Assembly: GCA_036507075.1 (NCBI GenBank)
Contig: DASXQR010000221.1
Coordinates: forward strand, 1 to 64,000
Origin: Acidobacteriota bacterium
GTDB taxonomy: Bacteria; Acidobacteriota; UBA6911; JACQSX01
DNA: 64,000 bases
Direction of reading: 5' to 3'
Below are positions 7,373 through 44,251 of the stretch, piece by piece. A program made the translations under genes and the position numbers. Under the pieces are notes generated by a model that saw nothing but the letters and a program-made list of their open reading frames with translations, ran no database searches and had not been told where the DNA came from. The first letter of the stretch is position 1. Each line of letters starts with the position of its first letter.

Positions 7373-8623
7373 TCACTGGATTCCGGCCTCCTGCGTTTTA
7401 CGGCCGCGCCCATCTTGTCGGCCGGAAACGCTCAAGAGTTCCAGATCTACCAGGCCAAGCTTCTTTGTAAGCTGTCGAATTTCACTCTCATAGATTGCGT
7501 TCATGGCGATGATCGCATCCGGACGATAAGTTCTGAGAAACTTCGGCGGTAAAATTTCCTGCCCGGTTCCAGCGATGTACCTGCCATGCTTTCTGGGATT
7601 GATGTCCACTACATATTCGATCTGGTCCTGACTCTTTAGCGTGTTTAAGAAGGTGACTCCCTTCGAGCCAGCTCCCCATAGGACCAGTCGCCGGCCAGCT
7701 TCGGTGAGCCGCTGAAGCTCGCCTCGCCAGGCTTCCATCGTGCTGCGATATTTCTCGGCAAATTCCGCTGCATATTGGCCTATTTTCTGGCAGTTATCCC
7801 AGCCATTATTTGCAGCGCCGGCTGTTTCTTCATCCGGGACCGCTTCGATGCAAAGAAACTGGCCTTCGAATACCTCAGCCACGTCGCAAACTTTAAACCC
7901 TGAATCAGTAAACGCTCGCCGAAGGGAGTGGGCGCTGAAATATGAGCAATGCTCATAGATAATGTCCCAGATTGAGAGGTCGCGCAGGATGAATAGCACG
8001 TTAGGAACTTCAAAGAACACGACCGTGTCCAGACGAGCGCCAATCGCACGTCGTATCATGCCCAGAAAGTCTATCGGATTTGGGATATGCTCTAACATGT
8101 GCCGGCAACAGATAAGATCGGCACCATGGTCGGAATAACCTTCCGAGTAAAAGTCTGGGATAAAGGTAATCCTCTCTGACGCACCGTCGGCAGCCGGAAC
8201 GGGGGCGTAGCTTGGATCAAAACCGAGGCCGCTGTTTTCGCCAAGTTCGCAGAGCAATTTGAGGAAATCGCCCTTTCCGCAGCCGATCTCGACAATATCC
8301 TTGCCATACAGATCATAACGCTGAATTAAACGCCTAGCGGTTGTAGCCGCATAGCTTTGAAATGTCGGCGAAAAGTGCAGCGAGTTCTCATACTTCTGAG
8401 CGTATTGCATCAGTCCAGGATTGAACGCAAGATTAGATATATGGCCGCAACGTTCGCAGAACCCGAGCCGAATGTCCCCCCTTGGAGCATGGATGGCCTC
8501 ATTCCGTGTCGCCCAAAGCAGATTGCAGTGCACAGGCACGCCTGCGATATCGATAAGAGTCGCCATCTGTGTCGAGCCACAGACCGGACATGAATCTTCC
8601 AGGGTCTTTCCAGCGCTCAGCAT
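7373..8623 (-). CDS. NDP-sugar C-methyltransferase family protein (copy 3)
   Basis: CPVC...CERC zinc site, EIGCGKG SAM motif, IYEHCSYFS, LWGAGSKG, VVDINPRKHG. Confidence 0.85.
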   Translation of the reverse strand: MLSAGKTLEDSCPVCGSTQMATLIDIAGVPVHCNLLWATRNEAIHAPRGDIRLGFCERCGHISNLAFNPGLMQYAQKYENSLHFSPTFQSYAATTARRLIQRYDLYGKDIVEIGCGKGDFLKLLCELGENSGLGFDPSYAPVPAADGASERITFIPDFYSEGYSDHGADLICCRHMLEHIPNPIDFLGMIRRAIGARLDTVVFFEVPNVLFILRDLSIWDIIYEHCSYFSAHSLRRAFTDSGFKVCDVAEVFEGQFLCIEAVPDEETAGAANNGWDNCQKIGQYAAEFAEKYRSTMEAWRGELQRLTEAGRRLVLWGAGSKGVTFLNTLKSQDQIEYVVDINPRKHGRYIAGTGQEILPPKFLRTYRPDAIIAMNAIYESEIRQLTKKLGLVDLELLSVSGRQDGRGRKTQEAGIQ

Positions 8624-29878: not shown

Positions 29879-30292
29879 TTAGGGAACAAATGGGCTCAGG
29901 ATGGTCAGCCGCCTTACAAAAGATCTTGGTATATAAGCGATTTCGTTGTTAGCGTCCTTGTCTGAGGGCCACAGGTAAAAACCATGTAGATTTTGTAGAT
30001 CCACATTGTTCTTGACTGCTCCCTCCAAAATCTCACCATCCACGAGCTCGACTCGTACCCAGATCTTCTCGCTGATCGGTTGCTTGGTGAAAAACTTAAA
30101 TTCTTCGTGCTTCGGATCTCCGTCAAAATCTTTCACGAAAAAAATGGCCTTGATATCTTCAATGTTAAAAACTTCATCTTTTCCCTGCCTCGTTAGGATC
30201 CCCACTTCGTCTTTGATAGTGTCCTCCCTGGCAAAGCCAGCGGTGACTTTCCCATCTCGTGTTCGAACTATAACCTTCCTTAGGGAGCTCAT
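29879..30292 (-). CDS. Small two-repeat beta protein (DUF6982-like), paralogue A
   Basis: KVIVRTRDG..GF, KAIFFVKDF, DGEILEG, NNEIAYIP; highly similar to 32186..32593. Confidence 0.75.
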   Translation of the reverse strand: MSSLRKVIVRTRDGKVTAGFAREDTIKDEVGILTRQGKDEVFNIEDIKAIFFVKDFDGDPKHEEFKFFTKQPISEKIWVRVELVDGEILEGAVKNNVDLQNLHGFYLWPSDKDANNEIAYIPRSFVRRLTILSPFVP

Positions 30293-30704
30293 TTTCTTAA
30301 TGCCACAGCACTGTCAGCGGGATTTCACCACAACTTATCTGGCATCGGCTACTAATTTCCGGAATCCTTTCGCCTGGCGAGCCCGGATCTGGTAAGTTTT
30401 GCCCTGGAATACGGCAAAAGCCACACTACATCGGGTTGTTACGTATATCCTGCGACTTACAGTCTAATCCTGAAGGCGCCGCAGCGCAATTAAACGGCTC
30501 GCCGTCGGAAACCGATGGAAAAATTTGGGTCGTAAGTGGTCTTGAAGGACTCTGCAGTTTGAGGTAGGGGCCGCGAGGCACACAGCCGCTTTCTTCCAAA
30601 GCCTGGAGGCCTGGCAAAAAACGACCTTTAGAGAGTTGGCCGCGGAAGGATAGGCCGCATAAGACAGATCTCGGCTTCTGCGCCAGGTCCCGGATAGCAA
30701 AAAA

Positions 30705-32120
30705 TCAAATCGCAGGTCTAATTTCGTACTGCTCGATCTTTGTGAGGAGGGTTTTATAGCTAACCTTAAGTTCTTTAGCTGCAGCCCATTTATTCCAATT
30801 GGTTTTACGAAGGGTCTTTGAAATCATGTTCCTTTCGACCACAGCAGCAGCTCTTTTGCCAATTTCCTTCAAAAACAAGTCGCCTTCATTCTCCTCCAGG
30901 TAAATGTCCACCAGCTCATCTAATTCCTCGGATGTTTGGCGAGAAGTCTTGGTTTCCAGCTCCAGTCGAATGGATTCGGTGTCGCCCAGGACAACATAGC
31001 GCTTGATTATGTTTTCCAGCTCGCGAATGTTCCCTGGCCAGTGATACGTTTCAAACAAACTGTACAGCTCCTCAGGAAGTTGGCGAACCTCAGCGTTATA
31101 GTACTTACCAAATTTCTCGAGAAAATACTGACAGTAAAAGCTAATTTCATCCTTTCGCTTCCGCAGTGGGGGAATTTCGATATTCACCACATTTAGTCGA
31201 TAATACAAATCTTTTCGAAATGACCCCTTTTCGATTGTTTCTTCGAGCCTTTGATTGGTAGCAGCGATAACCCGTACATCGACTTCTACTTCCTGGTTAC
31301 TGCCTAGACGAGAAAACTTTCCGTCCTGAAGCACCTGCAGCAATTTTGCCTGGGTTGAGGGCGTGAATTCGGCGATTTCATCCAGGAAAACAGTGCCGCC
31401 GTTGGCAAATTCAAATTTGCCAGGCCGATCAATGTAAGCCCCTGTGAAGGCTCCCTTTTCATAACCAAAAAGCTCACTCTCAGCGAGTTCAGCTGGCATG
31501 GCTGCGCAGTTAACCTTCACAAAGGGGCGATTGCACCATTGGGAATGCTGATGAATGGTTCGTGCAACGATATCTTTGCCCACACCACTTTCTCCCTGAA
31601 GTAACACCGGGATTCGCGCATTGGCAATTTGGAGAATGGTATCAAGAATTTCCTTCATCCTTGGATTGCAAAAAATAAACTCGACCTTCCCATCCTTTTT
31701 TGTCGGGCGTTCACGTGCACATTCATTTTTCGGTATCTTACGTGTGATTTCGTCAATTGTATGATCCAACTCTTGGATGTCGAAGGGTTTTAACAAATAA
31801 TCGCGGGCCCCAGAACGGATGGCCTTTACCACGCTTTTGGGATCGCTCAGGGTTGTCAAAATCACAATCGGGACCGAACCAAGTTCACGACAGATATCCT
31901 CCAGGTCCTCTGATTCCCTGTGACTTGAAAGTGGATCGATAAATATGACGTCGGGTTGGATTTTGCGCTCATTGATAAGAGTTCTTGCTGCATCCCAATC
32001 GGGAGTTGTCATCACCTCATAGCCACTGGAGCCCAACTTCCTGGTCACATACCTTTGAAATGCGTCCTCATCGTCTATGAACAAGACTTTGCGTGGCTGG
32101 CCAGTCTCTGCGTGCATCAA
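30705..32120 (-). CDS. NtrC-family sigma-54-dependent response regulator
   Basis: Receiver (FIDDED, VIFID, KPF), AAA+ (GESGVGKD, GAFTGA, LDEI, WPGNIREL) and HTH; GGAGGG RBS. Confidence 0.93.
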   Translation of the reverse strand: MMHAETGQPRKVLFIDDEDAFQRYVTRKLGSSGYEVMTTPDWDAARTLINERKIQPDVIFIDPLSSHRESEDLEDICRELGSVPIVILTTLSDPKSVVKAIRSGARDYLLKPFDIQELDHTIDEITRKIPKNECARERPTKKDGKVEFIFCNPRMKEILDTILQIANARIPVLLQGESGVGKDIVARTIHQHSQWCNRPFVKVNCAAMPAELAESELFGYEKGAFTGAYIDRPGKFEFANGGTVFLDEIAEFTPSTQAKLLQVLQDGKFSRLGSNQEVEVDVRVIAATNQRLEETIEKGSFRKDLYYRLNVVNIEIPPLRKRKDEISFYCQYFLEKFGKYYNAEVRQLPEELYSLFETYHWPGNIRELENIIKRYVVLGDTESIRLELETKTSRQTSEELDELVDIYLEENEGDLFLKEIGKRAAAVVERNMISKTLRKTNWNKWAAAKELKVSYKTLLTKIEQYEIRPAI

Positions 32121-32185
32121 AATACTCCCTCCTATCCAAAATCTCGTCGCCGCTGACCAAAAAACAGCGAATCAAGGTAAGCGCG

Positions 32186-32593
32186 CTACTCGGTGCCCAG
32201 AATGGTGAGCGCTTTGATGGCAGATTTTGGAATGTAAGCCAGTTCGTTATTGGCGTCGTGGTCGGAAAGCCTAAGATACAGGCCCAGGGAATTCAGCAGT
32301 TCCCCGTCGTTTTTGACGGCGCCCTCCAAAGTCTCGCCGTCAAAGAACACCACTCTCACCCATAGCTTCTCGCTGATTGGTTGTTTCGTCAGGAAATCGA
32401 CTTCCTCATATTTGGGGTCGCCCTGAAAGTCTTTTACAAAAAAAATGGCTTTCAGGTCTTCCGGAGTAAAAATCTCTTCCTTGCCGTCTCTTGTGATGAC
32501 CTTGACGCAATCCTTTATCTTGTCCTCTCGGCTGAATCCGGAGACAACTGTTCCCTGACAAGTCCGGACGATAACTTTACCTAAAGCGTTCAT
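32186..32593 (-). CDS. Small two-repeat beta protein (DUF6982-like), paralogue B
   Basis: Same motifs as 29879..30292 (KAIFFVKDF.GDPK, TKQPISEK, LEGAVKN, DANNE). Confidence 0.75.
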   Translation of the reverse strand: MNALGKVIVRTCQGTVVSGFSREDKIKDCVKVITRDGKEEIFTPEDLKAIFFVKDFQGDPKYEEVDFLTKQPISEKLWVRVVFFDGETLEGAVKNDGELLNSLGLYLRLSDHDANNELAYIPKSAIKALTILGTE

Positions 32594-32773: not shown

Positions 32774-33388
32774 TCAATTTGCTTCAAGACTGCGCAGCAC
32801 CACGGAGATCGGTCTTTGCCCCTCGATCTCCACCAGGAGCCGAAGCCCGCTGCCCCCTTCAAAATCGAGATGGAATTCGCCAAACTGATTGGTAACCGTT
32901 CTGGCAACCAACTTTTTTTCCCGCACCAGGAATATCGAGGAGGCCCTAATTCTCCGGTGGGGCCTGGCGGAATTCAGTACTTGTCCTGCCAGAGAAATCC
33001 GGTTCGATTCGGACTCTGAATCCACGCGCGTATCGATCAGGAAATTCCCCGCCCTGTAGAGGGCCTGCCGTGCGGGCCGCCTGGAATTGCGCAATCCCGC
33101 AGGTGCAGGCTGGCGGAGACTATCAAAGATCAGCCGCGCAACACTCATTTTTCCGGAGGGGATTCTCCACACTTCCGCGAAAAGGGCCTTTGCCCGACGA
33201 ACCGTGTTTTCAGGCGGCTGGTAGAAAAATTCCCTGGTCGCGACGTTATGGACGCTTCGCCAAATTTCCAAAATTTTGGAGCATTTCTCGCAGCCATGAT
33301 TGAGATGACTCTGCATTGCCGACCTTTGGTCCGCCGGTATAGTCTGGCGAGCGAAATCGGCCCAGTCCTCTAAGCTGAAGTGCTTCAT
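32774..33388 (-). CDS. Soluble anti-sigma-like protein: N-terminal zinc finger (H-x4-C-x2-C) plus C-terminal transthyretin/carboxypeptidase-regulatory-like beta domain
   Basis: MKHFS..SHLNHGCEKC resembles the zf-HC2/ZAS motif; LIFDS..PAGLR; LAGQVL, TNQFGEFHL; no TM segment. Confidence 0.7.
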   Translation of the reverse strand: MKHFSLEDWADFARQTIPADQRSAMQSHLNHGCEKCSKILEIWRSVHNVATREFFYQPPENTVRRAKALFAEVWRIPSGKMSVARLIFDSLRQPAPAGLRNSRRPARQALYRAGNFLIDTRVDSESESNRISLAGQVLNSARPHRRIRASSIFLVREKKLVARTVTNQFGEFHLDFEGGSGLRLLVEIEGQRPISVVLRSLEAN

Positions 33389-33504
33389 CTAACACCTTTC
33401 CCTGAAAGCAGATTTACCTCCGTTCATTCTCAGCACCGAACTTCTTGCCATCTATGAAGAAGGGTAGGCAGCGAGCAAAAAAATATAGGCACATAAAAAA
33501 TAAT

Positions 33505-36393
33505 CTAATTAGACGAGGCAAAGGCCTTGCCGACAAGTGCGAAGGGAGCCCAATAATAGGGATGAGCATAGCGCTGGCGCAAGTCCAGCATTGCCTCACG
33601 CAGCGCCAGCGCCTTCTGGCCATGCTGCCGCAATCGACCGTAGAAAGACTTCATGAACTCGGCTGTACTTGCATCGTGAACGTCCCACATTGTCAACAGC
33701 AGGGTCTGTGCTCCCGCGTACAGCAGACCTCGAGCCAGGCCCAGTAACTCGTCTCCTCCAGCGACCACGTTCAAACCGGTGGCACACCCGCTCAGTGTCA
33801 CCAGTTCCACCGGCAATTTCAGTTTATACAGGTCATACAGGTTCAGATAGGAGCCGCCCAGGCGAATGGCCGAAAACATGGGGTTGTCCTGCCGGAAAGA
33901 ACCATGCGTAGCGATGTGAACCACCCGGCTGGTCGGGCCTTTCCGGCTGAGGACCGCCTCGTTCGCTTCAGAGCCGAGAAAAACCTCAGAGCCGGGAAGC
34001 ATGGCCGCCACCGATTCAACCTCTTGCAGGATGGACGGCGCATGCAGATCGGGAACTCCCAAAATCAACGATGGGCCTGTGGCATTGGCAGATTTGCGGT
34101 GGCAATTGGCATAGATGTCGGCACTTGGAGCATAAGAGAGCGTAAACGAATCGATAAGATATCGCTTTCCGTCAAACAGGGCTTGAAACGGCAGATAATG
34201 CAGGACACCGTGCGGCACCATGACAAGATGAGTTCCCTGCAGGCGCCGACGCACCGGGGCTATCAGCTCGTTGTATAGCTCGCGCAGATGAGCATTTGTG
34301 GCGCTCAGAAAGGATTCCCTGAATGTGGCAATATAGTCCTCGCCAAGGCAAAATTTGGCTAATTGAAAGCGCAGCATGCGCAGCATGCCGGTCACTCTGG
34401 ATAGAGAGGTCACCGGCAGGATTTCAAGTCTTTTTCGCGTGAGCAGCGCCGCGACCACACGGTCATCGACGCGGAAGTACTCCACGATGGTGGTATCGGG
34501 GGTCAAAGCGGCCCGTATTTCCTCCACGCTCGAGACCGCAGGCGGATGCAGCGCGACATGCTCCGGTTCCGACGGAGGGAGATCTCGGAGCAGATGTTGC
34601 AATTCACCTTCGCGCGCGCGGGCCCGATCTTGAAGTTGCTCGATCCGCTTCGGGGAGAGCTCTTCCCACCGAAGCTGTTCCAGCTCAACACGGCGATAAC
34701 ACCAGTTTAGCTCCTCGCGCAGATCCCGGATTCGCCGGACCAGTTCGCTCTGGTCCCGTCCCGATTTTCCAGCAGGCAGAGGGTGCGCGCGTCCGAAGAT
34801 CAGGTCTCTCAGACTGCGTGACTTCGCCTGCTCGATATAGCCAAAAGCATTCTCCGTTGTTACCAGGTTTGAATCCCCGCGCAAGTGGAGTCTCACGAGG
34901 CCCTCGTAAACCTCCTGCTTGTTCTTCATGAACGCAATCTTGAGCTCTTCGGCGCGGAGGCCGGTGTGTAGCTTTTCCAGCGTGCGGCGGGCCTTCTGAT
35001 AGCAATCGCAGGCTTTCGCAACGTCTCCAGCAGTGTCCTGGATCCGGCCCATCAGGATGTGCGCCTGATAACTGAGGATCGGTGATTCAATCTTCGCCAG
35101 TTGCATCAGAGCCTCCGAGCAATGCCGGCGTCCGGACGCCAAGTCATTGGCGTAAACGGACAGCCGCGCCAGCAGCAGCTTGCAGAGAACAGCTTTGCCG
35201 GGGAGGATGGACGAGCCGAAGAAGTCCAGCGCGGCCACGGTCAATTGCCGCGCTTCAAAAAATCGGCCGGCGTTGAAAAGCACCAGAGCCTGATACAAAT
35301 CGATGAGTGACGGCCAGACGCGGTTCTTTTCCCGAACAAACATGCCTCTCGCCTGCCTGAAAAGATCCAATGCCCGCGAAATGTCTTTCTGTTCGCTTCT
35401 CGCAATGGCCAGGTTCACCAACGACTTGGCGGCCTCGTACCCCATTCCGAGGCGCTGGAATTGGGTAAAACCTTCCTGGGCCATTTCCGCCGCTTCCTCA
35501 ACCAGATTCAGTTCAAGGAAGATTTCTGATTGATCCAGGTTGCACAAGGCCAGGTGGTAAGCATCGCCGTATCTACCGCACGACTCGCGCGTGGCGCTCA
35601 ATAACTCGATGGCACGGCTGTATTCTCCTCGCAGGTAATACAAGTAGGCGATGTTGTAGTCGGCCTGTACCGTCAGCAGCACCAGCCCGTGCTGTTCGCT
35701 GAGAGCACGCGCATTCTGATAGGCCTCCAGGGCCCGGTGAAAATCGTTCAAGCTGATCAGGCATACCGCCATGTTGTGAAGAGTCACTGCGATGCCTTCG
35801 ATGTCTTGATAAGGCAGCAGTTGTTGATAGGCGCGTTCGTAGCAGGCGAGGGCATCCGCGAACCGGTCCTGGCGGTGCAGAATATTCCCGAGATTGTTCT
35901 CCAGACGGGCCAGGCGCCGGTTTTCACGTTTCTCGGTGAAGATCTTCCGGGCCAGCTCGGCCGCAGTGTAGGCCTGCTGGTATTCGCCCAGAAGAGCAAG
36001 CGGTTGGATGGATGAATTCAACGTCCTTGCCACTTCGTTGTCCCGGCCCAGTTCACGGAACAGGACCAGGCACTGTTCATGCAGATCAACCGCGGAGCGA
36101 TTTTGGCCCATGAAATACAGCGCATTCGCCTTGGCACGCAGGCTTATCGCCAGAGTCTCTTTATTGTCGATTTCTCGCGCTACCGCCACAGCGGCCTCGG
36201 CCAGCCGGAGAGACTGTGGCACGTCCACTCTGAGGTGATCATAAACGGCTCTGGCGAGCTTTTCGGCCACGTCCGCGCGAAGCAGCCGCTGGTGCCGGCG
36301 CAGAAATCTTTGTCTTCCAGCCTCGTCTGGAAGAGCCGCGATCTTTTCGAAAAGTTTCTCGGTGCGGGGGTTTTTTACCTCTTTTGATTTCAC
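33505..36393 (-). CDS. TPR-repeat CHAT-domain (caspase-like) cysteine protease
   Basis: Many TPR-like helical repeats, coiled coil, VPHGVLHYLPF, catalytic His in HIATHG, catalytic Cys in LSGCATG, HPYYWAPF. GTG start at 36393 overlaps the sigma stop (GTGA). Confidence 0.92.
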   Translation of the reverse strand: MKSKEVKNPRTEKLFEKIAALPDEAGRQRFLRRHQRLLRADVAEKLARAVYDHLRVDVPQSLRLAEAAVAVAREIDNKETLAISLRAKANALYFMGQNRSAVDLHEQCLVLFRELGRDNEVARTLNSSIQPLALLGEYQQAYTAAELARKIFTEKRENRRLARLENNLGNILHRQDRFADALACYERAYQQLLPYQDIEGIAVTLHNMAVCLISLNDFHRALEAYQNARALSEQHGLVLLTVQADYNIAYLYYLRGEYSRAIELLSATRESCGRYGDAYHLALCNLDQSEIFLELNLVEEAAEMAQEGFTQFQRLGMGYEAAKSLVNLAIARSEQKDISRALDLFRQARGMFVREKNRVWPSLIDLYQALVLFNAGRFFEARQLTVAALDFFGSSILPGKAVLCKLLLARLSVYANDLASGRRHCSEALMQLAKIESPILSYQAHILMGRIQDTAGDVAKACDCYQKARRTLEKLHTGLRAEELKIAFMKNKQEVYEGLVRLHLRGDSNLVTTENAFGYIEQAKSRSLRDLIFGRAHPLPAGKSGRDQSELVRRIRDLREELNWCYRRVELEQLRWEELSPKRIEQLQDRARAREGELQHLLRDLPPSEPEHVALHPPAVSSVEEIRAALTPDTTIVEYFRVDDRVVAALLTRKRLEILPVTSLSRVTGMLRMLRFQLAKFCLGEDYIATFRESFLSATNAHLRELYNELIAPVRRRLQGTHLVMVPHGVLHYLPFQALFDGKRYLIDSFTLSYAPSADIYANCHRKSANATGPSLILGVPDLHAPSILQEVESVAAMLPGSEVFLGSEANEAVLSRKGPTSRVVHIATHGSFRQDNPMFSAIRLGGSYLNLYDLYKLKLPVELVTLSGCATGLNVVAGGDELLGLARGLLYAGAQTLLLTMWDVHDASTAEFMKSFYGRLRQHGQKALALREAMLDLRQRYAHPYYWAPFALVGKAFASSN

Positions 36394-37004
36394 TTGAAAC
36401 CCTTCTTCTCCAAAGCCTGCTTCAGTCGTTTCAAACATCGCATCCGAATGAATCCGACAGAACCCGTCTTGAGTCCCAGTCTGGCGGCAATATCCTGATA
36501 TGGACGGGCCGGCTCTTCGAAGAACAGCATCTGAAGCAACTGATGGCAGCGCGGTGACATCTCCAACAAAGCCTCGCGCAGGATCTGCTCGCGCTCGAGC
36601 TGGTGCAGCACATCCTCAGGTAAATCCCCGTCCGTCTGAAGGGACGTCTCCTCGTGTAACTCTACGGCCGCAAACCGCCTGTGATGCCTGTTGTGATGAA
36701 AACATCTGTGCGAAGCGACCTTGATCAGCCATGCCGGCAAAGCCCGTGGCTGTTGCAGCCGCGGCAATTCGGAAAGAAGGTCCAGGCAAACCCCCTGAAA
36801 AATGTCGCTGGCGTCCTCCGGAGATAACTGATACTTGATGGGGATAGAGAAGATCAGATTCTTGTATTTATCAATCAGCGCCGACCAGGCTTCGTTGCTC
36901 CCTTTGAGACACTCACGAACCAGACGTTCATCCGTCCAGGACACCTTTCCTGCCCGAGCAACTTTGATTTCTGGTCCACTGGCAGCCTTTTGACGAATTC
37001 TCAT
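36390..37004 (-). CDS. ECF-type RNA polymerase sigma factor
   Basis: DERLVRECL..AWSALIDKY, DASDIFQ, WLIKVA (region 2); YQDIAARLG..GSVGFIRMRCL (region 4). Confidence 0.9.
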   Translation of the reverse strand: MRIRQKAASGPEIKVARAGKVSWTDERLVRECLKGSNEAWSALIDKYKNLIFSIPIKYQLSPEDASDIFQGVCLDLLSELPRLQQPRALPAWLIKVASHRCFHHNRHHRRFAAVELHEETSLQTDGDLPEDVLHQLEREQILREALLEMSPRCHQLLQMLFFEEPARPYQDIAARLGLKTGSVGFIRMRCLKRLKQALEKKGFK

Positions 37005-38764
37005 GGCACATTCTTGCGAATGAAAAGCTGCTCTGCATTCCAGAGGACGTAATCGTCCAATACCACAGGCCGCAGGTTTCCAACCTTCTCTCTGGCCGCC
37101 ACCAGGATGTTCGGGCTTGCCAGACAGATCATCGGCTGGTTGTCGGCCATCAGTTGCTGCACTCTGTCATAGATGCGTTTACGCTGCTGATAGTTGGGAG
37201 TGATCAGTTGCAACTTCATCAGCCGATCGATCTCGGCCTCCCAGGCGGTCGCCGGATGGCTCTGCCCGACATTCCAAATGTGCGTCCGGCCGCTCGACAG
37301 CATCACGTTCATTTCGGAATTCGGATCCGCGTCACCGCTGGCCAGGGAGAGAATGGCGGCCTCGTAGTCGTAGGTACGAAGTGCCCGGTCTATGACGGTG
37401 CGAAATTCGAGGCTTACCACATTTACCGTCATTCCGAGCTGCTTTAAGTCGTCCTGAATTATTGTCGCCATCTGTCCGCGCTGCGTGTTTCCCGCGCTGG
37501 TCAGGATGGAAAATTCAACTTTTTGGCCGCCTGCGTCGGCAAGAGCTCCGTCCTTCCAGGAAAAGCCGGCGCTCTCCAATAATTTCCGGGCGCGCTCGAG
37601 CGAACGCTGGGGCTGTGCGATGGCGCGGTTGACCCAGAGCGTGTTGGCGGGCGTCACGTGAATGGCCAGAGGCGCAGCTCGCCCCTTGTAAACGAGCTGG
37701 GTGATTGCCTGGCGATCTATCGCTGCCGACACAGCCTGGCGGAATTCCGTCTGGCGGAACCAGGATTGTTTCCGTGAAATGTCGGTCAGGCCCTTCGACC
37801 GTAGATCGTTCAGATTGAAGAACAAGAAATTATATTCAAAGCCCGGTCCCAGATCGAAGAGCTTGTAATCGCCCGGCCGCTGCAAACGCTGCAGCACGGA
37901 AAAGTTCTGCGCCCCCACCCGGCTGACGATGTCGACTTCGCCGCTCTGGAAACGCATCACCTGCGCATCCTCGCTTGGACTGGGAACAAATACCACCTCG
38001 TCCAGGTAAGGCAGACGATTTCCGTTCTGATCCGACTTCCAGTAGAAAGGGTTGCGCCGCAGCACCAGTTGCTGGCCCGGAACATAGGCATGCAGTTGAA
38101 AGGGACCGAGGCCGGCAATTTTGTCGGGTGGCGTGTTAAGGCTCCAGACCTGGCGCAACAGGCCCTGCTGGTAATCCTTTTCCAGTAGATGACGCGGAAG
38201 GATGGCAATGCTGTCGAAAATCCTTTCCGCAGCGGCATAAGATCGCGCCAGCTCGAACATCACTGTGTGATCGTCAATCTTTCGGCACTGTATCGGTGTG
38301 TTCTCCACCACGAGCAGATCGCGCTGCGGGGCGCCCACTTTTTCATCCAGATAGACTTTGAAGCTGAAGGTCACGTCATCGGCTGTGAATGGAAAACCAT
38401 CAGAAAACTTGATTCCACGTCGCAGGTTTAATGTATAGCGGCGAAGATCGGGCGAAACGGCCCACGAAGTGGCCAAGGCGGGCTGGGTCTGAAGTGTGGA
38501 ACGATCAATGTGAACCAGATCCCCCATCAGGCGGTAGATTACCTCACGCGAAGGCAGATCAAGGGCGAGGACCGGATTCAAGGTTTTTGGCTCACCGCGC
38601 TGTGAGACGATCAGCCTGCCGCCCTGGTTGCCGGCCGGCGTTTTGCTAACCAGCAGCTCTTCACGCCCGGGGCGAGCCGGTTGAGACCCACCCGACGGGA
38701 CAGTCGCAACCGCTGCAGCCAGCAGACACAGTGCGAGATTTCTTGCGAGCCAAGCATGACTCAT
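37001..38764 (-). CDS. Opp/Dpp-family (SBP family 5) peptide ABC transporter substrate-binding protein
   Basis: Signal peptide, EPKTLNP, FSDG.PFTADDV.FS, GLGPF, RNPFYW, PYLDEV. Confidence 0.9.
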   Translation of the reverse strand: MSHAWLARNLALCLLAAAVATVPSGGSQPARPGREELLVSKTPAGNQGGRLIVSQRGEPKTLNPVLALDLPSREVIYRLMGDLVHIDRSTLQTQPALATSWAVSPDLRRYTLNLRRGIKFSDGFPFTADDVTFSFKVYLDEKVGAPQRDLLVVENTPIQCRKIDDHTVMFELARSYAAAERIFDSIAILPRHLLEKDYQQGLLRQVWSLNTPPDKIAGLGPFQLHAYVPGQQLVLRRNPFYWKSDQNGNRLPYLDEVVFVPSPSEDAQVMRFQSGEVDIVSRVGAQNFSVLQRLQRPGDYKLFDLGPGFEYNFLFFNLNDLRSKGLTDISRKQSWFRQTEFRQAVSAAIDRQAITQLVYKGRAAPLAIHVTPANTLWVNRAIAQPQRSLERARKLLESAGFSWKDGALADAGGQKVEFSILTSAGNTQRGQMATIIQDDLKQLGMTVNVVSLEFRTVIDRALRTYDYEAAILSLASGDADPNSEMNVMLSSGRTHIWNVGQSHPATAWEAEIDRLMKLQLITPNYQQRKRIYDRVQQLMADNQPMICLASPNILVAAREKVGNLRPVVLDDYVLWNAEQLFIRKNVP

Positions 38765-38804: not shown

Positions 38805-39821
38805 TCAAAGCCGCATTTTTATCGTATTTGCAAGAGTATAGTACCCCCAGATAAGAGGAATCAAGGCAAGCCCGGGAATGAACATCCACCAGTACGATAG
38901 CAGTACATGGTACTGCTGAAGAGTCGAGAGCATGTTTCCCCAACTCGCAGTGGGTTCGCTTACTCCCAGTCCCAGGAAAGAGAGTGTCACTTCCGCCAGG
39001 ATATATTGCGGGATAAGAACAGAGGCTTGCGTGAGCATAACTCCGCGTGTCTGGGGCGCTACGTGACGCCCGACCAGGTAGGCGCCGGAAGCTCCAAGTC
39101 CGCGCGCCGCCACAACAAAATCTTTCTCCTTGGCGCTCAGCACCACGCCGCGAATCAGCCGAGCCGGCCGAGCCCAACCAAGAACTCCTATAACAACCAC
39201 CACCAGCAGGAAAGCTTTCCCGGCTGAAACGTGAAGCGGCATCACCGCCCGCACGGCAAACAGCAGGTAAAGCCACGGAAGCGCCATGAAAACCTCGGCG
39301 CACCGCATTACTACTTCATCCAACCATCCCGCCTGCAGTCCGGCCATCATCCCCAGCAGGAAGCCCAGGCCCAGCGAAAGAGCGGTGGCAGCCAAACCGG
39401 CCGCGATGGAAATTTGACCGCCGAAAAGCAGCCTTGAAAACTGATCGCGGCCAAAATCGTCGCTGCCGAACAAAAAAATTCGGCCGGGTTCGTCCACTCC
39501 GAACAGGTGCCATCGCGTTGGAAATAACCCACCGGCTTTGTAGCCGTGGCCCCTGACCATCCATTTGATCGGGTAGACTTGCGAACGCTCCTCCTCATAA
39601 GCTTCCGGATTGTGCGGTTGCGCCCGAACACCATAGACGAAAGGCCGCAGATGAAATCTCTGGTAGCGATCAAAAAAATGAATTCTGGTGGGAGGCGCAA
39701 ACGCGAGCGTCCGGTTTTGCATGGTCGGATCGTAAGGTGAAAAGAATCCCGCAAAAAGAATCAAACCGTGCCACAGGGCCAGACTCGCCCCTGCAAAGCG
39801 AAAGAGCCGTTTTGGATTCAT
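38805..39821 (-). CDS. OppC/DppC-type ABC permease
   Basis: True start MNPKR at 39821 (ATGA overlap with OppB); GSDDFGRDQFSRL, EAA loop FVVAARGLGAS, LSFLGLG, SWGNML. Confidence 0.9.
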   Translation of the reverse strand: MNPKRLFRFAGASLALWHGLILFAGFFSPYDPTMQNRTLAFAPPTRIHFFDRYQRFHLRPFVYGVRAQPHNPEAYEEERSQVYPIKWMVRGHGYKAGGLFPTRWHLFGVDEPGRIFLFGSDDFGRDQFSRLLFGGQISIAAGLAATALSLGLGFLLGMMAGLQAGWLDEVVMRCAEVFMALPWLYLLFAVRAVMPLHVSAGKAFLLVVVVIGVLGWARPARLIRGVVLSAKEKDFVVAARGLGASGAYLVGRHVAPQTRGVMLTQASVLIPQYILAEVTLSFLGLGVSEPTASWGNMLSTLQQYHVLLSYWWMFIPGLALIPLIWGYYTLANTIKMRL

Positions 39822-40786
39822 TGCTTTGCCCGAATCCGCGGGTCGCTGGCATACAGCAGCAGGTCCGCAATCAGATTTCCACCGGCGAGAAAGGCAGTCG
39901 ACAGGAGGACGCAACCGACCACCAGATGAAAATCTCTGGCAAGGATGGCTTCCAACAGCAGGCGACCCAGTCCCGGCCAGCTCATTACGATCTCCACCAG
40001 CAGTGAAGAACTCAGCAGCTCGGAAATGGATAAGCCGAACAGCGAAATCACCGGATTCGCCGAGGCCCGGAGCGCGTGCCCCACCAGGAGACGAGAATCG
40101 GGCAAACCGCGCGCCCGAGCGGCTAATATGAACGGGGAATCGAGCACGTCGGAAACAGCCCTGCGAACGTGCGGCAGCAGCATTGGCAATGTCACAAGAA
40201 CCAGGCACAGAACCGGAAGGACCAGATGGGCCATGAGATCTCCGGTTGTGGTCCCCCAGCCGCGAGAGGACAACGCCGTAGAAGAAATACCGCCCACCGG
40301 CAACAAACCGCTGCGCAGCGCAAACAAAAGCAGAATCAGCGCTAGCATCAGGTGGGGAATGGCGAGAAGAATCACGTTCGCGCCGCCGAACAGAATATCC
40401 TGCCACTTGCCTCGACGGGCAGCGATCCAGGCGCCCGTGGGAATAGCGATCAGCCAGGACAACACCATGGCCGTGACGGTCAAAAGCAGTGTATTGGCGG
40501 CTCGATGCCAAAGCAGAGGAGCCGCCGCCATGTTATACGCCACGGAGAATCCCAGATCGCCGTGGGCGACCGATCGAGCCCATTGAGCGTATTTGACTCC
40601 TATCGGCTGGTCGAGTGCGTATTTTGCCTTGAGATTAGCGATGGTTTGCTCGGATACCTGAGGATTCAGCCGCAGTTCATCCAGGAAGTTTCCGGGAGCG
40701 ATCTCAAAGAGTAGGAAGGTCAGAACAGAAACTGCCGCAAGCAGGAATAAGCTGTTTATGATCCGCCGCAGACAGTAGCGGATCAT
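39818..40786 (-). CDS. OppB/DppB-type ABC permease
   Basis: MIRYCLRRI, LDQP, GDLGFS, AARARGL, WPGLG, NLIADLL..SDPRIR. Confidence 0.9.
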   Translation of the reverse strand: MIRYCLRRIINSLFLLAAVSVLTFLLFEIAPGNFLDELRLNPQVSEQTIANLKAKYALDQPIGVKYAQWARSVAHGDLGFSVAYNMAAAPLLWHRAANTLLLTVTAMVLSWLIAIPTGAWIAARRGKWQDILFGGANVILLAIPHLMLALILLLFALRSGLLPVGGISSTALSSRGWGTTTGDLMAHLVLPVLCLVLVTLPMLLPHVRRAVSDVLDSPFILAARARGLPDSRLLVGHALRASANPVISLFGLSISELLSSSLLVEIVMSWPGLGRLLLEAILARDFHLVVGCVLLSTAFLAGGNLIADLLLYASDPRIRAKQ

Positions 40787-40793
40787 TTTGTGC

Positions 40794-42104
40794 TCACTGC
40801 TGGGGCGTGGTCACTTGCCCGAGAGACTGGACAGCCTGGAAAAGATCGAGTCGGCCCTGTCCTAAGTCTTGAGAAATCCACTTGGCATGGGCAATTGCGC
40901 CTGCCGCCTGTGAAGGACTGCAGTCGGGTTGAAGGTCTAAGAGCAGCGCTACAGCTCCGGCGACGAACGGGGCGCTGAACGACGTCCCCCAGGCAGCGGC
41001 ATACTTGCCGTACGGATAAGTCGTCACTATGCCTTCGCCTGGCGCCGCCACCCATACAAACCCGTAATTGGAGAATAATGACCGTTGATCAAGGTTGTCT
41101 GTGGAGGCAACACATATCACATTATTGAGCGCTCCAGGGTAGACAGGCGTGCTGCTTCCATTGTTTCCTGCCGATGCGACCGGGATGACTCCTCTGGCGG
41201 CCGCATAATCAATCGCTTCCTGCAGCTCGCTGGAGTAGGTCGAAAAACCGAAGCTCATGTTCAGAATCTTCGCGTTCTTTTGCACGCTCCTGTAGATGGC
41301 TCGAAGCACATCGGACATGTAACCCATTCCGCTGGCCTGGAAGGCCTTCATCGGCATAATCATGGCTCTGGGCGCAACCAGATGGATGACCCCTGCCACC
41401 ATGGTCCCATGGCCGAATGCGGCATACTGCAGGCTATTTAACTCGCCAGCGGCGATCTCGTCGACCAAGGCTGCCGTTGATTGATTGACCCAGGCTGGGT
41501 CGAATTCAGACTGATCGTCTACAAGGGCCGCCGTAGACTGGTCCAGATCTCCCCTTTCTGAACCCGTCTCATCCAGATCGCGCGTGAAGTCGTACCCCTT
41601 AACTAGAAAATTCATCAACACCGGATGATTGGGGTCTACTCCCGTGTCGATCACCGCGACAATGCCGGACCCTCTTACGTTGAAGGCATTCTGAGTGTCT
41701 GAAATCCTTACGATCGCGTTGGCCGGCTGCTCGACATAGCCGCGGCGCACTCTCTGGCCGAAAAAGTCGACGGGCCAGGCGTCGGTCAGGGCTGGAGGAA
41801 TGGCGTAGGCAGGGGTTGCCAGTGCTATTGCCAGAATATCCAGCTCGGCGTTGGAAACGCCGGGCTGGGCCCGCAAAGTCGCGAGGAACGCATCCGGATC
41901 GACCAGGTCTGAAGTAGATACAAGGAAAACCTGGCCAAGGGACTCATCCAGTCCACGCTGTACGTTGCATCCGATCACAGCGCAGATTGTTTGCAGCGGC
42001 CCGTTTCCACCCGGCACGCGCGCAATAAATCGTTTCTCGGCGGAAACGAGACTCGACGAGAGGAGCCAAAAAAGAAAGACACTGCAGCTAAGCCTGCGAT
42101 TCAC
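40794..42104 (-). CDS. Secreted subtilisin-like S8 serine protease with an internal repeated octapeptide
   Basis: GTG start at 42104 (AAGGAGA RBS) gives a signal peptide. Triad IDTG / HGT / GTSFSAP, oxyanion AGN; QSTAALVD twice between the catalytic Asp and His. Confidence 0.9.
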   Translation of the reverse strand: MNRRLSCSVFLFWLLSSSLVSAEKRFIARVPGGNGPLQTICAVIGCNVQRGLDESLGQVFLVSTSDLVDPDAFLATLRAQPGVSNAELDILAIALATPAYAIPPALTDAWPVDFFGQRVRRGYVEQPANAIVRISDTQNAFNVRGSGIVAVIDTGVDPNHPVLMNFLVKGYDFTRDLDETGSERGDLDQSTAALVDDQSEFDPAWVNQSTAALVDEIAAGELNSLQYAAFGHGTMVAGVIHLVAPRAMIMPMKAFQASGMGYMSDVLRAIYRSVQKNAKILNMSFGFSTYSSELQEAIDYAAARGVIPVASAGNNGSSTPVYPGALNNVICVASTDNLDQRSLFSNYGFVWVAAPGEGIVTTYPYGKYAAAWGTSFSAPFVAGAVALLLDLQPDCSPSQAAGAIAHAKWISQDLGQGRLDLFQAVQSLGQVTTPQQ

Positions 42105-42407
42105 TGCCTGTAATCTCCTTGCTTGTACGCGGGAAAACGAGTCAGGCCGGAACTTTTGCTCAGCCGCCCCCCACGGACTTGACCTTGCCAATTATCTAAG
42201 TATCGAAACTTCCTTCTGTCAATAGCGGACTCAACCGGAATTTCAACGTGGTGAAAACCGTAGCCTTTTACTTTCTAAACGCGGGGGTAAAAACTATGTA
42301 TTGCAATCAACCAAAACAGCAAAAACTTTCCCCCCAAACTAAAAATAGCGTGAATCGAAGCCGTGTCAAGCCATCACTCCCAAAAAATCAACAATCTTGA
42401 ATTCTAA

Positions 42408-42442: not shown

Positions 42443-44251
42443 TCAGGACTTAAGGGCGGTGAACAGTTTGGTGAGGCTGTCTTTGGCGTCGCCGAAAAGC
42501 ATCATGCATTTCGGATTGTAGTAAAGATCATTATCCACGCCGGCGAAACCGGGGCGCATGCTGCGCTTGAGGACAATGATCGACTTGGCGCGCTCCACTT
42601 CCAATATCGGCATTCCATAAAGGGGACTGCTCTTGTTGTTCTTGGCCGCCGGGTTGGTCACGTCGTTTGCCCCAACCACCAGCGCGATGTCCGCTTCGGC
42701 AAAATAGGGGTTGATGTGATCCATTTCGAACAACTGGTCGTAAGGAACGTTTGCCTCGGCAAGAAGGACATTCATGTGGCCCGGCATCCGGCCCGCAACC
42801 GGGTGGATGGCGTATTTTACGTCGATGCCGCGCTTCATCAGGATGTTCGCCAGCTCGCTGACACCATGTTGTGCCTGTGCAACGGCCATGCCGTAGCCCG
42901 GAACAATGATGACAGATCGGGCGCTGTCGAAAAGCACGCTCGCTTCATCAGGCACGATGCTTCGAACCGTTCCCTTTGCGTCCGACGCAGGTCCTTCGGT
43001 CTCTTGTTCGATCTTGCCGAATGCGCCGAACAGAACGTTCATCGCCGAACGGTTCATGGCCCGGCACATGAGCAAAGAAAGAAGGAATCCCGACGTGCCG
43101 TCCAGCGATCCGGTAATGATCTGGATTTTGTTCATCAGCACAAACCCCATTGCAGCGTCGGCCAGTCCCGCGTATGAATTCAGCAGAGATATCACTACCG
43201 GCATGTCGGCCGCCCCAATGGGAATCACCAGCAGGAATCCAAACAGCAGGGACAACCCGACCATGATGTAGAACACCATGCCGGCCGACGGCACAATGAT
43301 CAGGTAAATGAGGCTGCCCACAATAATTGCAAGCAAAACGATATTGGAAGCATTCTGCCCGCGGTACGTGATGGGAGCTCCAGGCAGAATTCCCTGGAGT
43401 TTTCCGGCTGCCATCAGGCTCCCGGTGAACGTCAGGCCACCGATAACGACCTCAAAACCTATGGCTGTCATCAGCACCCTGCCAAGTTCACCGCCATGTC
43501 GGAAATATTCGGAAACTCCAATCAAAGTGGCGGCCAGTGCCCCCAGCGAATGCGAAAGCGCGGTCCGCTGCGGCACGGCTGTCATCGGGATCCACATTCC
43601 CATGCTGCCGCCAAGGACCGAACCGATCGCCAAGCCTGAAAAGATCCACCGATACGTGACAATTTCGTGATGAAACAGTGTCCCTGTGACAGCTACGAGC
43701 ATGCCGAATTCGGCCAGGAACATGCCTTTGCGCGCATACTTAGGTGAACTCAGGCCTTTCAGACCCAGGATGAAAAGAACGGCCGACACAATATAGAAAA
43801 CGCTCAGCACGCTGGCCGGGTCAAAGCTGGTTGCATAGAGTCTCAGCTCTGCGAACCAATAAACAGCGGCGACAATCAATACGGCAGAAATCGACAGCAG
43901 CAATGTGCGAGGACTTAAACTAAGTGCTTTACGCTGCGTCCCCTGAGCAGCCGATACGGGTCCGTCGCTGGGGCGTTTCTTGAACATTTTCAACATGCGG
44001 TCGGTAATGAGAAATCCTCCGACCACATTGGTTGACGAGCAGGCCACCGCGATGAATCCGAATGTTGTGCTCAAGGTGCCATGAGCCGAACCGGCAACCA
44101 CCAGGGAACCGACCAGTGAAATACCGGACATGGCGTTGGTGGCCGACATCAACGGGGTGTGCAGCAGCGGCGGGACTCGTGAAATAACGTGATATCCGAG
44201 AAAGCCCGCAAGTATGAAGATATAGAGCCCAATTTCCAACTCGGTGGTCAA
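42443..44251 (-). CDS. pntB: NAD(P)+ transhydrogenase membrane subunit: alpha2 (PntAB) fused to beta (PntB)
   Basis: N-terminal VPPLLHTPLMSATNAMSG (alpha membrane part), then beta motifs HSLGALA, GAADMPVVISLLNSY, GYGMAVAQAQ, HPVAGRMPGHMNVLLAEA, GANDVTNP. Confidence 0.92.
   Translation of the reverse strand: MTTELEIGLYIFILAGFLGYHVISRVPPLLHTPLMSATNAMSGISLVGSLVVAGSAHGTLSTTFGFIAVACSSTNVVGGFLITDRMLKMFKKRPSDGPVSAAQGTQRKALSLSPRTLLLSISAVLIVAAVYWFAELRLYATSFDPASVLSVFYIVSAVLFILGLKGLSSPKYARKGMFLAEFGMLVAVTGTLFHHEIVTYRWIFSGLAIGSVLGGSMGMWIPMTAVPQRTALSHSLGALAATLIGVSEYFRHGGELGRVLMTAIGFEVVIGGLTFTGSLMAAGKLQGILPGAPITYRGQNASNIVLLAIIVGSLIYLIIVPSAGMVFYIMVGLSLLFGFLLVIPIGAADMPVVISLLNSYAGLADAAMGFVLMNKIQIITGSLDGTSGFLLSLLMCRAMNRSAMNVLFGAFGKIEQETEGPASDAKGTVRSIVPDEASVLFDSARSVIIVPGYGMAVAQAQHGVSELANILMKRGIDVKYAIHPVAGRMPGHMNVLLAEANVPYDQLFEMDHINPYFAEADIALVVGANDVTNPAAKNNKSSPLYGMPILEVERAKSIIVLKRSMRPGFAGVDNDLYYNPKCMMLFGDAKDSLTKLFTALKS

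Follow-up and report, generated by a model that had tools for sequence, protein, structure and literature searches.

Genomic organization of the locus

The window, by which we mean the whole 64-kb stretch of DNA analyzed, carries on its minus strand the genes for an S8 protease, OppB, OppC, OppA, an ECF sigma factor and a TPR-CHAT protein, in this order and with ends that mostly abut or overlap. The TPR-CHAT gene is followed by an orphan gene of 204 codons (anti-sigma-like), a DUF6982 gene, a sigma-54 regulator and a polysaccharide cluster. The features are as follows.

40794..42191, minus strand: S8 subtilase, predicted to be secreted (Pfam PF00082 Peptidase_S8, E 1e-43; hydrophobic N-terminus, prodomain)
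D 41646-41648, H 41409-41411, N 41163-41165, S 40980-40982, minus strand: catalytic residues of the S8 protease, from motif positions
41517..41540, minus strand: octapeptide copy 1, QSTAALVD in translation, starting at residue 218 of ORF 40794-42191
41460..41483, minus strand: octapeptide copy 2, QSTAALVD in translation, starting at residue 237 of ORF 40794-42191
39818..40786, minus strand: OppB-like permease (PF00528, PF19300), starting 7 nt past the S8 stop
38805..39821, minus strand: OppC-like permease (PF00528), its ATG overlapping the OppB stop
37001..38764, minus strand: OppA-like family 5 solute-binding protein (PF00496, E 1e-79; hydrophobic N-terminus)
36390..37004, minus strand: ECF sigma factor (TIGR02937, 83.6 bits against a cut-off of 42.9), its start overlapping the OppA stop
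33505..36438, minus strand: TPR-CHAT protein (PF12770 and TPR families), without a hydrophobic N-terminus and predicted to be cytoplasmic
35554..36018, minus strand: co-varying TPR helix-A residues 141, 181, 215, 218, 221, 225 and 295, the proposed peptide-binding groove
33904-33906 and 33784-33786, minus strand: catalytic H845 and C885 of the TPR-CHAT protein
33458..33490, minus strand: candidate ECF promoter, CCTATATTTT, a 13-14 nt spacer and CCCTT, about 70 nt upstream of the anti-sigma-like gene
32774..33388, minus strand: soluble anti-sigma-like protein, from alignment, a structure model and weak Pfam and fold matches
29879..32593, minus strand: DUF6982, sigma-54 response regulator and DUF6982 (Pfam), downstream

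The database gene call for the S8 protease starts at 42104 and gives 436 amino acids. By hydropathy, the N-termini of the S8 and OppA proteins are hydrophobic, and those of the TPR-CHAT, sigma and anti-sigma-like proteins are not. The OppA-like protein scores under every NCBIfam equivalog cut-off and therefore receives no substrate name. An ATPase gene is absent from the window operon, the nearest candidates in the genome lying on contig C83. The CHAT residues H845 and C885 are invariant in all 56 aligned proteins, and the CHAT domain of the window matches CHAT-domain structures at E 8e-9 to 3e-6. Other CHAT-domain proteins of the same genome, on contigs C152, C128, C17 and C206, fall outside the studied family.

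The polysaccharide cluster is large (window 1-29526, minus strand), is co-oriented downstream and encodes glycosyltransferases, a deacetylase, a sugar transferase, an aminotransferase and a chain-length protein. It is a possible output of the system, as are the DUF6982 and sigma-54 regulator genes. At 42443-44251 (minus strand), the transhydrogenase alpha-2 (PNTB_4TM) and beta domains are fused in one ORF of 602 amino acids.

The same genome contains a second system on contig C51, in which the S8 protease carries three QSTAAVVD copies and the TPR-CHAT protein is 61% identical to that of the window. This locus (L002, contig C51 1156-6539) comprises the TPR-CHAT gene, an anti-sigma-like gene with the same upstream motif, the S8 gene and an HD-motif protein that by eye resembles an HD-GYP domain; the contig stops upstream.

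The octapeptide repeat of the S8 protease

The analysis began from a sequence-only reading of the window, in which the octapeptide QSTAALVD was said to be repeated exactly within the S8 protease, between the catalytic Asp and His, with only silent differences in the DNA. All of this holds: both minus-strand stretches encode QSTAALVD, the 6 mismatches among their 24 nt fall in 5 codons and leave every amino acid unchanged, and the two copies start at residues 218 and 237, in the insertion between D182 (DTG) and H261 (GHGT). The flanks had been described as unrelated, which is not wholly the case, the two copies reading D-QSTAALVD-D and N-QSTAALVD-E; across the family a V, L or I stands two places upstream of Q in 239 of 242 first copies. 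An exact 8-mer repeat appeared in none of 20000 shuffles of the window S8 protein and in 38 of the 1777 open frames of 350-600 amino acids in the window genome. The repeat is real and strongly selected.

The protease that carries it has the features of an S8A subtilase, namely an intact Asp-His-Ser triad (D182, H261, S404), the oxyanion Asn (N343) and a subtilisin fold. The fold is that of a pro-subtilisin, with the insertion-bearing structure 3whi as the best match. The loop is modeled with low confidence (pLDDT block means 45-64), and confidence is low near the active site too.

Distribution of the family and number of copies

A phylum-wide search with one query (E<=1e-60) gave the S8 family in 4 of 401 genomes, and it also occurs in 5 of 137 genomes of the window's own class, in 139 of 301 genomes of one order and in 62 of 351 of one family; the named relatives are Acidobacteriota. 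The 301-genome tallies include the unpublished genomes G512, G570, G684, G721, G745 and G751, and the count of 62 of 351 includes G819 and G1026. These unpublished genomes support the tallies only, and every other claim is free of them. Among the same 301 genomes the S8 protease occurs in 139, the TPR protein in 137 and both in 136, leaving 3 with the S8 only and 1 with the TPR only. S8 matches in the genomes G946, G924, G935, G805, G813, G1001 and G824 of family f39 were flagged for one internal stop codon.

The locus is conserved across the relatives, where the usual order is oppD-oppF-oppB-oppC-oppA-ECF-TPR/CHAT-anti-sigma-like-S8. The fetched region contains OppA in 79, OppB in 75 and OppC in 76 of 94 systems, and in 68 of 69 loci oppB is preceded by an ABC ATPase signature. 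Alignment of the S8 homologues, which had been suggested as a check on the repeat, shows that its number and its sequence both vary. The octapeptide motif is present in 199 of the 201 S8s of the fetched loci that have a readable loop, as is the GT[SA][FYM] Ser motif (199 of 201), and it falls into 58 types. The matches per protein range from 1 to 16, the highest numbers belonging to distant representatives, and the slot that holds an intact copy varies among S8s. In a redundant set of 452 loops an exact 7-mer repeat occurs in 307, vs none of 452 control windows of equal length.

One S8 clade (L024-L029, L086, L168, L172) has a single peptide copy, and its preceding gene mostly matches only about 120 residues of the anti-sigma-like protein. 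The S8 tree was made by a quick method.

Selection on the peptide copies

We compared the copies within each protein over 91 unique loops. The amino acid sequences are identical in 110 of 123 copy pairs, a count that skips degenerate slots (which raises it) and leaves out 7 frames without a readable loop, and only 1 of these 110 is also identical in DNA. A mean of 4.65 of the 8 codons differ between copies of one protein, and between-protein identity is 5%. When copies A and B were read by position in a clade of 45 S8s, they proved identical in 44, which represent 6 types. The Ser3 codon of this clade is AGY in copy A (30 of 30) and TCN in copy B (30 of 30), with ACN in the Thr types. Positions 2, 4 and 6 have switched in step in both copies, and the Ser codon mark was kept.

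The distinct Ser3 codon classes show that the two copies arrived at Ser by separate paths, so that they evolved in parallel and not through simple replacement of one by the other. The same codon classes, together with the differing DNA of 109 of 110 pairs, led us to reject gene conversion and recent duplication as the origin of identical copies. The copies are held equal by something beyond codons. The sequence-only reading, which spoke of an old duplication kept by selection, thus understated the case, since the repeat copies change together.

The octapeptide at the prodomain junction

The octapeptide of the loop recurs ahead of the catalytic Asp in many S8s, in up to 14 copies, and in the three such S8s that were read fully its place is the prodomain junction. 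The S8s of 13 distant TPR-CHAT loci lack the octapeptide in the D-H loop. Units read by eye at their prodomain junctions include QTSQAFID-QVSQAFID, PRTIVFID twice, a hexamer four times and RRTLAVID once. A second place at the junction is what would be expected of cargo set free by maturation, and not of a structural loop with a fixed position. The sites were too variable for a cleavage register to be called from the junction. The oppA gene is within the fetched region in 1 of these 13 loci, so an adjacent Opp is not universal.

The distant S8s of L283, L284, L286 and L287, which have long C-terminal extensions, show an R-x4-F-P unit at the prodomain junction and adjoin TPR-CHAT, anti-sigma-like and ECF genes. 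The R-x4-F-P units are perhaps another peptide class.

Peptide type follows the genome

Some S8 genes of the family are not linked to a TPR-CHAT gene. The sequence-only reading had counted it against a signal peptide if the repeat were found in S8s unlinked to Opp and CHAT genes. The repeat does occur in such S8s, but their types match that of the receptor-linked S8 in the same genome: all 25 unlinked S8s share the type of the TPR-CHAT-linked S8 of their own genome (18 of 18 genomes). Shuffling of genomes gave a mean of 5.0 of 18, and none of 20000 shuffles reached 18. Within one genus the result was 11 of 11 genome-matched against 5.2 when shuffled (p 0.0004). The sample consisted of 100 regions from genomes picked for several S8s or long contigs. 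A match was defined as at least one shared type, and 2 of the 25 hold a variant copy in addition. One of the S8s has a TPR-CHAT gene nearby on the opposite strand and was assigned as unlinked by hand. The comparison covers genomes with a fetched linked S8 and leaves out one whose type evaded the pattern.

The identity between unlinked and linked S8s is mostly 50-60% (range 44-89%), and for 10 of the 25 unlinked S8s the nearest relative elsewhere, 74-83% alike, carries a different type. Genomes with two TPR-CHAT systems mostly have two types. The constraint on the octapeptide acts in trans, and the type tracks the genome and not the lineage of the protease.

Co-variation of the peptide with the TPR groove

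We next give the columns of each protein that change with the peptide (p<0.01) on a tree of the 94 systems. The TPR part (1-520) has 13 such columns in 444 and the middle part 1 in 168; OppA has 3 in 464, OppB 2 in 271 and OppC 2 in 279. There are none in the CHAT (0 of 201), S8 (0 of 283), ECF (0 of 164) and anti-sigma-like (0 of 198) columns. Co-variation with TPR and OppA had been suggested beforehand; it is found in the TPR part of the TPR-CHAT protein and little in OppA, which was rejected as the specificity partner on its 3 of 464 columns.

The signal is concentrated in TPR 100-340, with 9 columns against a null mean of 0.64 and maximum of 5 (300 draws). The best pair joins peptide position 3 with TPR 225 (Thr-Val, Ser-Met; p 2e-6), peptide 6 pairs with TPR 181 (p 3e-5) and 215 (p 2e-4), and further pairs are peptide 2 with TPR 295 and peptide 4 with TPR 218. 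Against a mock-position null of 400 control columns, positions 3 and 6 beat all 400 and position 2 all but 7; positions 4, 5 and 7 do not stand out from the pseudo-character null (fractions 0.09, 0.20 and 0.28). Residues 181, 218, 221 and 225 align with positions 5, 2, 5 and 9 of the consensus TPR helix A, which we take to line the TPR binding groove.

Four peptide-TPR rules were fixed beforehand and then applied to 40 new regions, which gave 33 pairs after 7 regions without an S8 loop and one second TPR were dropped. The rules held in 33 of 33, 33 of 33, 26 of 33 and 27 of 31 new pairs, compared with 17.7, 20.9, 17.7 and 21.0 when shuffled; the 33 pairs include many relatives of training-set members, five of the peptides were already known, and in mixed loops the majority type was taken by eye. 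The failures belong to the position-6 rule (7 of 33) and the position-4 rule (4 of 31). A convergent case is G569, where QRTVAVLD occurs with the matching A218 and Q295 though the TPR is closest (62%) to those of other types. The two systems of the window genome differ at TPR 141 and 181 as expected.

A complex prediction for the TPR-CHAT protein with the 31-residue loop scored 0.32 against 0.00 for the best control, a weak result, and yielded no interface. The score mark was also reached by 116 of 157 solved pairs and 2 of 215 mismatched pairs, both of these mismatches lying at the level seen here. The pLDDT of the partner was at least 41, and runs agreed in at least 66% of contacts. Taken together, we hold it very probable that the octapeptide is a ligand of the TPR-CHAT protein.

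These comparisons bear on a reading in which the loop serves the S8 protease itself, as an autoinhibitor, a calcium-binding or folding element or a preferred site of self-cleavage. Such insertions exist in subtilases, the best fold match bears one, a hydrophobic residue stands in register ahead of every unit, and subtilases self-cleave at the prodomain junction, where the junction copies sit. However, no S8 column changes with the peptide, S8s of one genome that are 50-60% alike share a type which 10 of 25 nearest foreign relatives do not, and the slot of the intact copy moves. We disfavor this reading and consider it very unlikely. The least probable explanation among those we weighed is that the peptide is an inhibitor of the CHAT active site or a mimic of its substrate. 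By inspection, its hydrophobic-hydrophobic-Asp end resembles the LLFD-S of the anti-sigma-like protein, and caspases cleave after Asp. Against this, the co-varying columns sit in the TPR repeats and not in CHAT, and some types have E, N, S, G or Q instead of Asp at position 8.

The anti-sigma-like protein and a candidate promoter

In the alignment, the anti-sigma-like protein has an N-terminal helical domain with invariant H28, C33 and C36 (H-x4-C-x2-C), a conserved FDS..AG.R linker and a C-terminal beta domain (model pLDDT 87). Pfam finds zf-HC2 on 1 of 51 such proteins and CarboxypepD_reg weakly on 9 of 51 (best E 1.6e-4; none on the window copy), and the Atlas row gives zf-HC2 on 27% of members. 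A fold search gave no match at E<=0.001, with ChrR at E 0.017 as a weak one. Zinc-binding anti-sigma (ZAS) proteins are of the His-x3-Cys-x2-Cys type, whereas the motif here is H-x4-C-x2-C in a helical N-domain, and sigma binding is predicted. The name anti-sigma-like for this orphan is accordingly a provisional one, given from the motif and weak matches. In the database proteins P0151 and P0177 the anti-sigma-like sequence continues into the signal peptide of the S8, which reflects either a true fusion or a lost stop codon.

The two-part motif at 33458-33490 is the sole site of its kind in the 64-kb window. Of 110 regions upstream of the anti-sigma-like gene, 70 contain it, whereas shuffles yield 0.06, and it is a candidate ECF promoter. 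The motif is likewise found before several stand-alone S8 genes, before regulators and before a gene for a small secreted protein that lies on the upstream side of the opp genes, but only 7 of 39 unlinked S8s have a site within 1.5 kb. At a score of at least 18 the window genome has three sites, before two anti-sigma-like genes and one sigma-54 regulator. The third of these strong copies, at 8091 on the plus strand of contig C19, lies directly before a sigma-54 response regulator that resembles window 30705-32120. The small secreted-looking protein is conserved and has no Pfam match (L170:13876-14310, L064, L189, L192, L214); its gene is preceded by the candidate promoter motif.

Proposed mechanism

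We propose that the octapeptide is a ligand and that the protease which processes it also carries it as cargo. This full mechanism of a released pheromone is our best reading, and we think it rather more probable than not. The S8 protease would be exported, to judge from its N-terminus, and would cut the exposed peptide from itself or from a neighbor. The site of the cut would be the D-H loop, with the prodomain junction taking its place in other lineages; the constrained core runs from Q1 to D8. The linked Opp transporter would import the peptide, as the gene linkage suggests. In the cytoplasm it would bind the concave groove of the TPR-CHAT protein, with specificity set by the groove residues to which the co-variation and the weak complex prediction point. 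By analogy with Csx29, Csx30 and CASP-sigma, binding would switch the caspase-like CHAT protease, most likely on, the anti-sigma-like protein would be cut and the ECF sigma factor would be freed. The freed sigma factor may then transcribe from the motif promoters, including those of the anti-sigma-like gene, S8 genes and regulators, giving feedback. Release and import of the peptide are probable steps; for cleavage of the anti-sigma-like protein by CHAT, an analogy, we put the chances at even.

The docking of an intact S8 protease, or of its unexported precursor, directly in the TPR groove with no free peptide is an unlikely alternative on balance. A free and a tethered peptide look the same to co-variation, distant loci rarely have an adjacent Opp (1 of 13), and two database proteins fuse the anti-sigma-like protein to the S8. 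On the other hand, the hydrophobic N-terminus is on the S8 and not on the TPR-CHAT protein, the motif comes in 1 to 16 copies at two unrelated places of the precursor, and OppA is in the fetched region of 79 of 94 close systems. Somewhat less unlikely is a private alarm with the same ligand and receptor, in which S8 maturation or foreign proteases cut the loop inside the periplasm of the producing cell, which takes the peptide back up as a report on its envelope or protease state. All co-variation results fit this equally well, the low-confidence loop (pLDDT block means 45-64) is compatible with an exposed bait, and related CHAT-sigma systems act in defence according to the accessible text of PMC10028731. 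The 58 types, which differ between close genomes, and the two types kept by two-system genomes would be expected more of social signals.

For the released pheromone, the likely role is kin-specific signaling from cell to cell, because the types differ between genomes as pherotypes do; a cell with two membranes could also keep the peptide within its periplasm. In its widest form, to which we give an even chance, the proposal is that peptide communication among bacteria has a third class, which soil Acidobacteriota widely use. Its pheromone would be carried in 1-16 copies inside its own maturase and would be read, residue by residue, through the TPR code of a caspase-like protease; an ECF sigma factor would then be fired and would feed back on the production of the pheromone. 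Given the junction peptide in distant lineages, the ECF54-type cassettes of other phyla may be circuits of the same kind.

Comparison with known systems

Our literature search, which left most subscription papers outside, found no description of an S8-octapeptide/TPR-CHAT system and no paper for six peptide sequences. The receptor-matched peptide carried by the S8 protease points to an undescribed kind of bacterial chemical signaling. If this is true, it follows an RRNPP-like logic with different parts in two-membrane soil bacteria, and a caspase-like protease of bacteria, outside CRISPR, gains a named ligand. Cassettes of sigma factor, subtilase and CHAT, long listed but untested, would become directly testable with a synthetic peptide of 8 residues. 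From the code that links peptide and receptor, cross-talk can be predicted, and orthogonal proteases gated by peptides could be derived from it.

In RRNPP(A) systems the peptide is imported via Opp and bound by the TPR part of a receptor that has an N-terminal HTH or three-helix effector domain. The structure matches of the window TPR include RapF (E 9e-7) and RapJ (E 8e-6). Like the system described here, RRNPP(A) systems (Rap-Phr, NprR, PlcR, Rgg, AimR) combine an intracellular receptor with a precursor that is secreted and in some cases contains the pheromone in tandem; the accessible parts of PMC10075063 and PMC11343458 describe RRNPP systems, with their cytoplasmic peptide receptor, from Gram-positive Firmicutes. 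The present host belongs to the Acidobacteriota and not the Bacillota. No small secreted propeptide gene was met beside the receptor, the co-varying peptide lying instead inside an S8 of 436 amino acids; Pfam gives only TPR and a C-terminal CHAT domain on the receptor, so that the effector would be the CHAT protease; and one peptide type is common to several unlinked proteases of a genome. Of the RRNPP(A) traits, groove-set specificity is represented here by the co-variation and the weak complex score, binding being predicted, and Opp import by gene linkage (OppA 79/94, OppB 75/94, OppC 76/94).

The closest matches of the window sigma factor in the plasmid collection are actinobacterial sigma factors, at about 34%. 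In the ECF54 group of Actinobacteria a subtilase, a TPR-CHAT protein and a carboxypeptidase-regulatory-like protein likewise lie beside an ECF sigma factor, and proteolytic control has been proposed but is untested (PMC7826278, PMC8999054); the accessible text of these two descriptions mentions neither a peptide nor Opp. ECF54 is given there as 100% Actinobacteria, with the promoter GTATCAG/CTCC and no anti-sigma (PMC7826278), whereas here the host is of the Acidobacteriota and the motif is CCTATAT / CCCTT. Among ECF54-type loci reached via the plasmid collection, a Streptomyces match has no S8 or CHAT among its annotated neighbors, and a Nonomuraea region has TPR-CHAT-like matches with no S8 match within 9 kb.

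The model for the output step is Craspase, in which, in the accessible text of PMC10028731, a cytoplasmic TPR-CHAT protein (Csx29) cuts an anti-sigma (Csx30) and frees an ECF-like CASP-sigma; the trigger there, unlike here, is Cas7-11 bound to target RNA. The window protein falls below the cut-off of the Csx29 family, scoring 38.5 bits against 300 with model NF041237, and there is no Cas gene among the annotated neighbors.

HetN of Anabaena, a precedent for a signaling peptide carried inside a protein, is not its own protease. Its peptide ERGSGR is embedded in the larger protein and is thought to be released by processing, but it is a single invariant motif that passes between cells through septa to the transcription factor HetR, as far as the accessible text of PMC5955598 goes. 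In the DdvA-DdvS pair of Myxococcus xanthus, an ECF sigma factor, an anti-sigma and CHAT likewise meet in one circuit; DdvA is a transmembrane anti-sigma (PMC11506125, accessible part), whereas the anti-sigma-like and TPR-CHAT proteins of our locus are separate and soluble.
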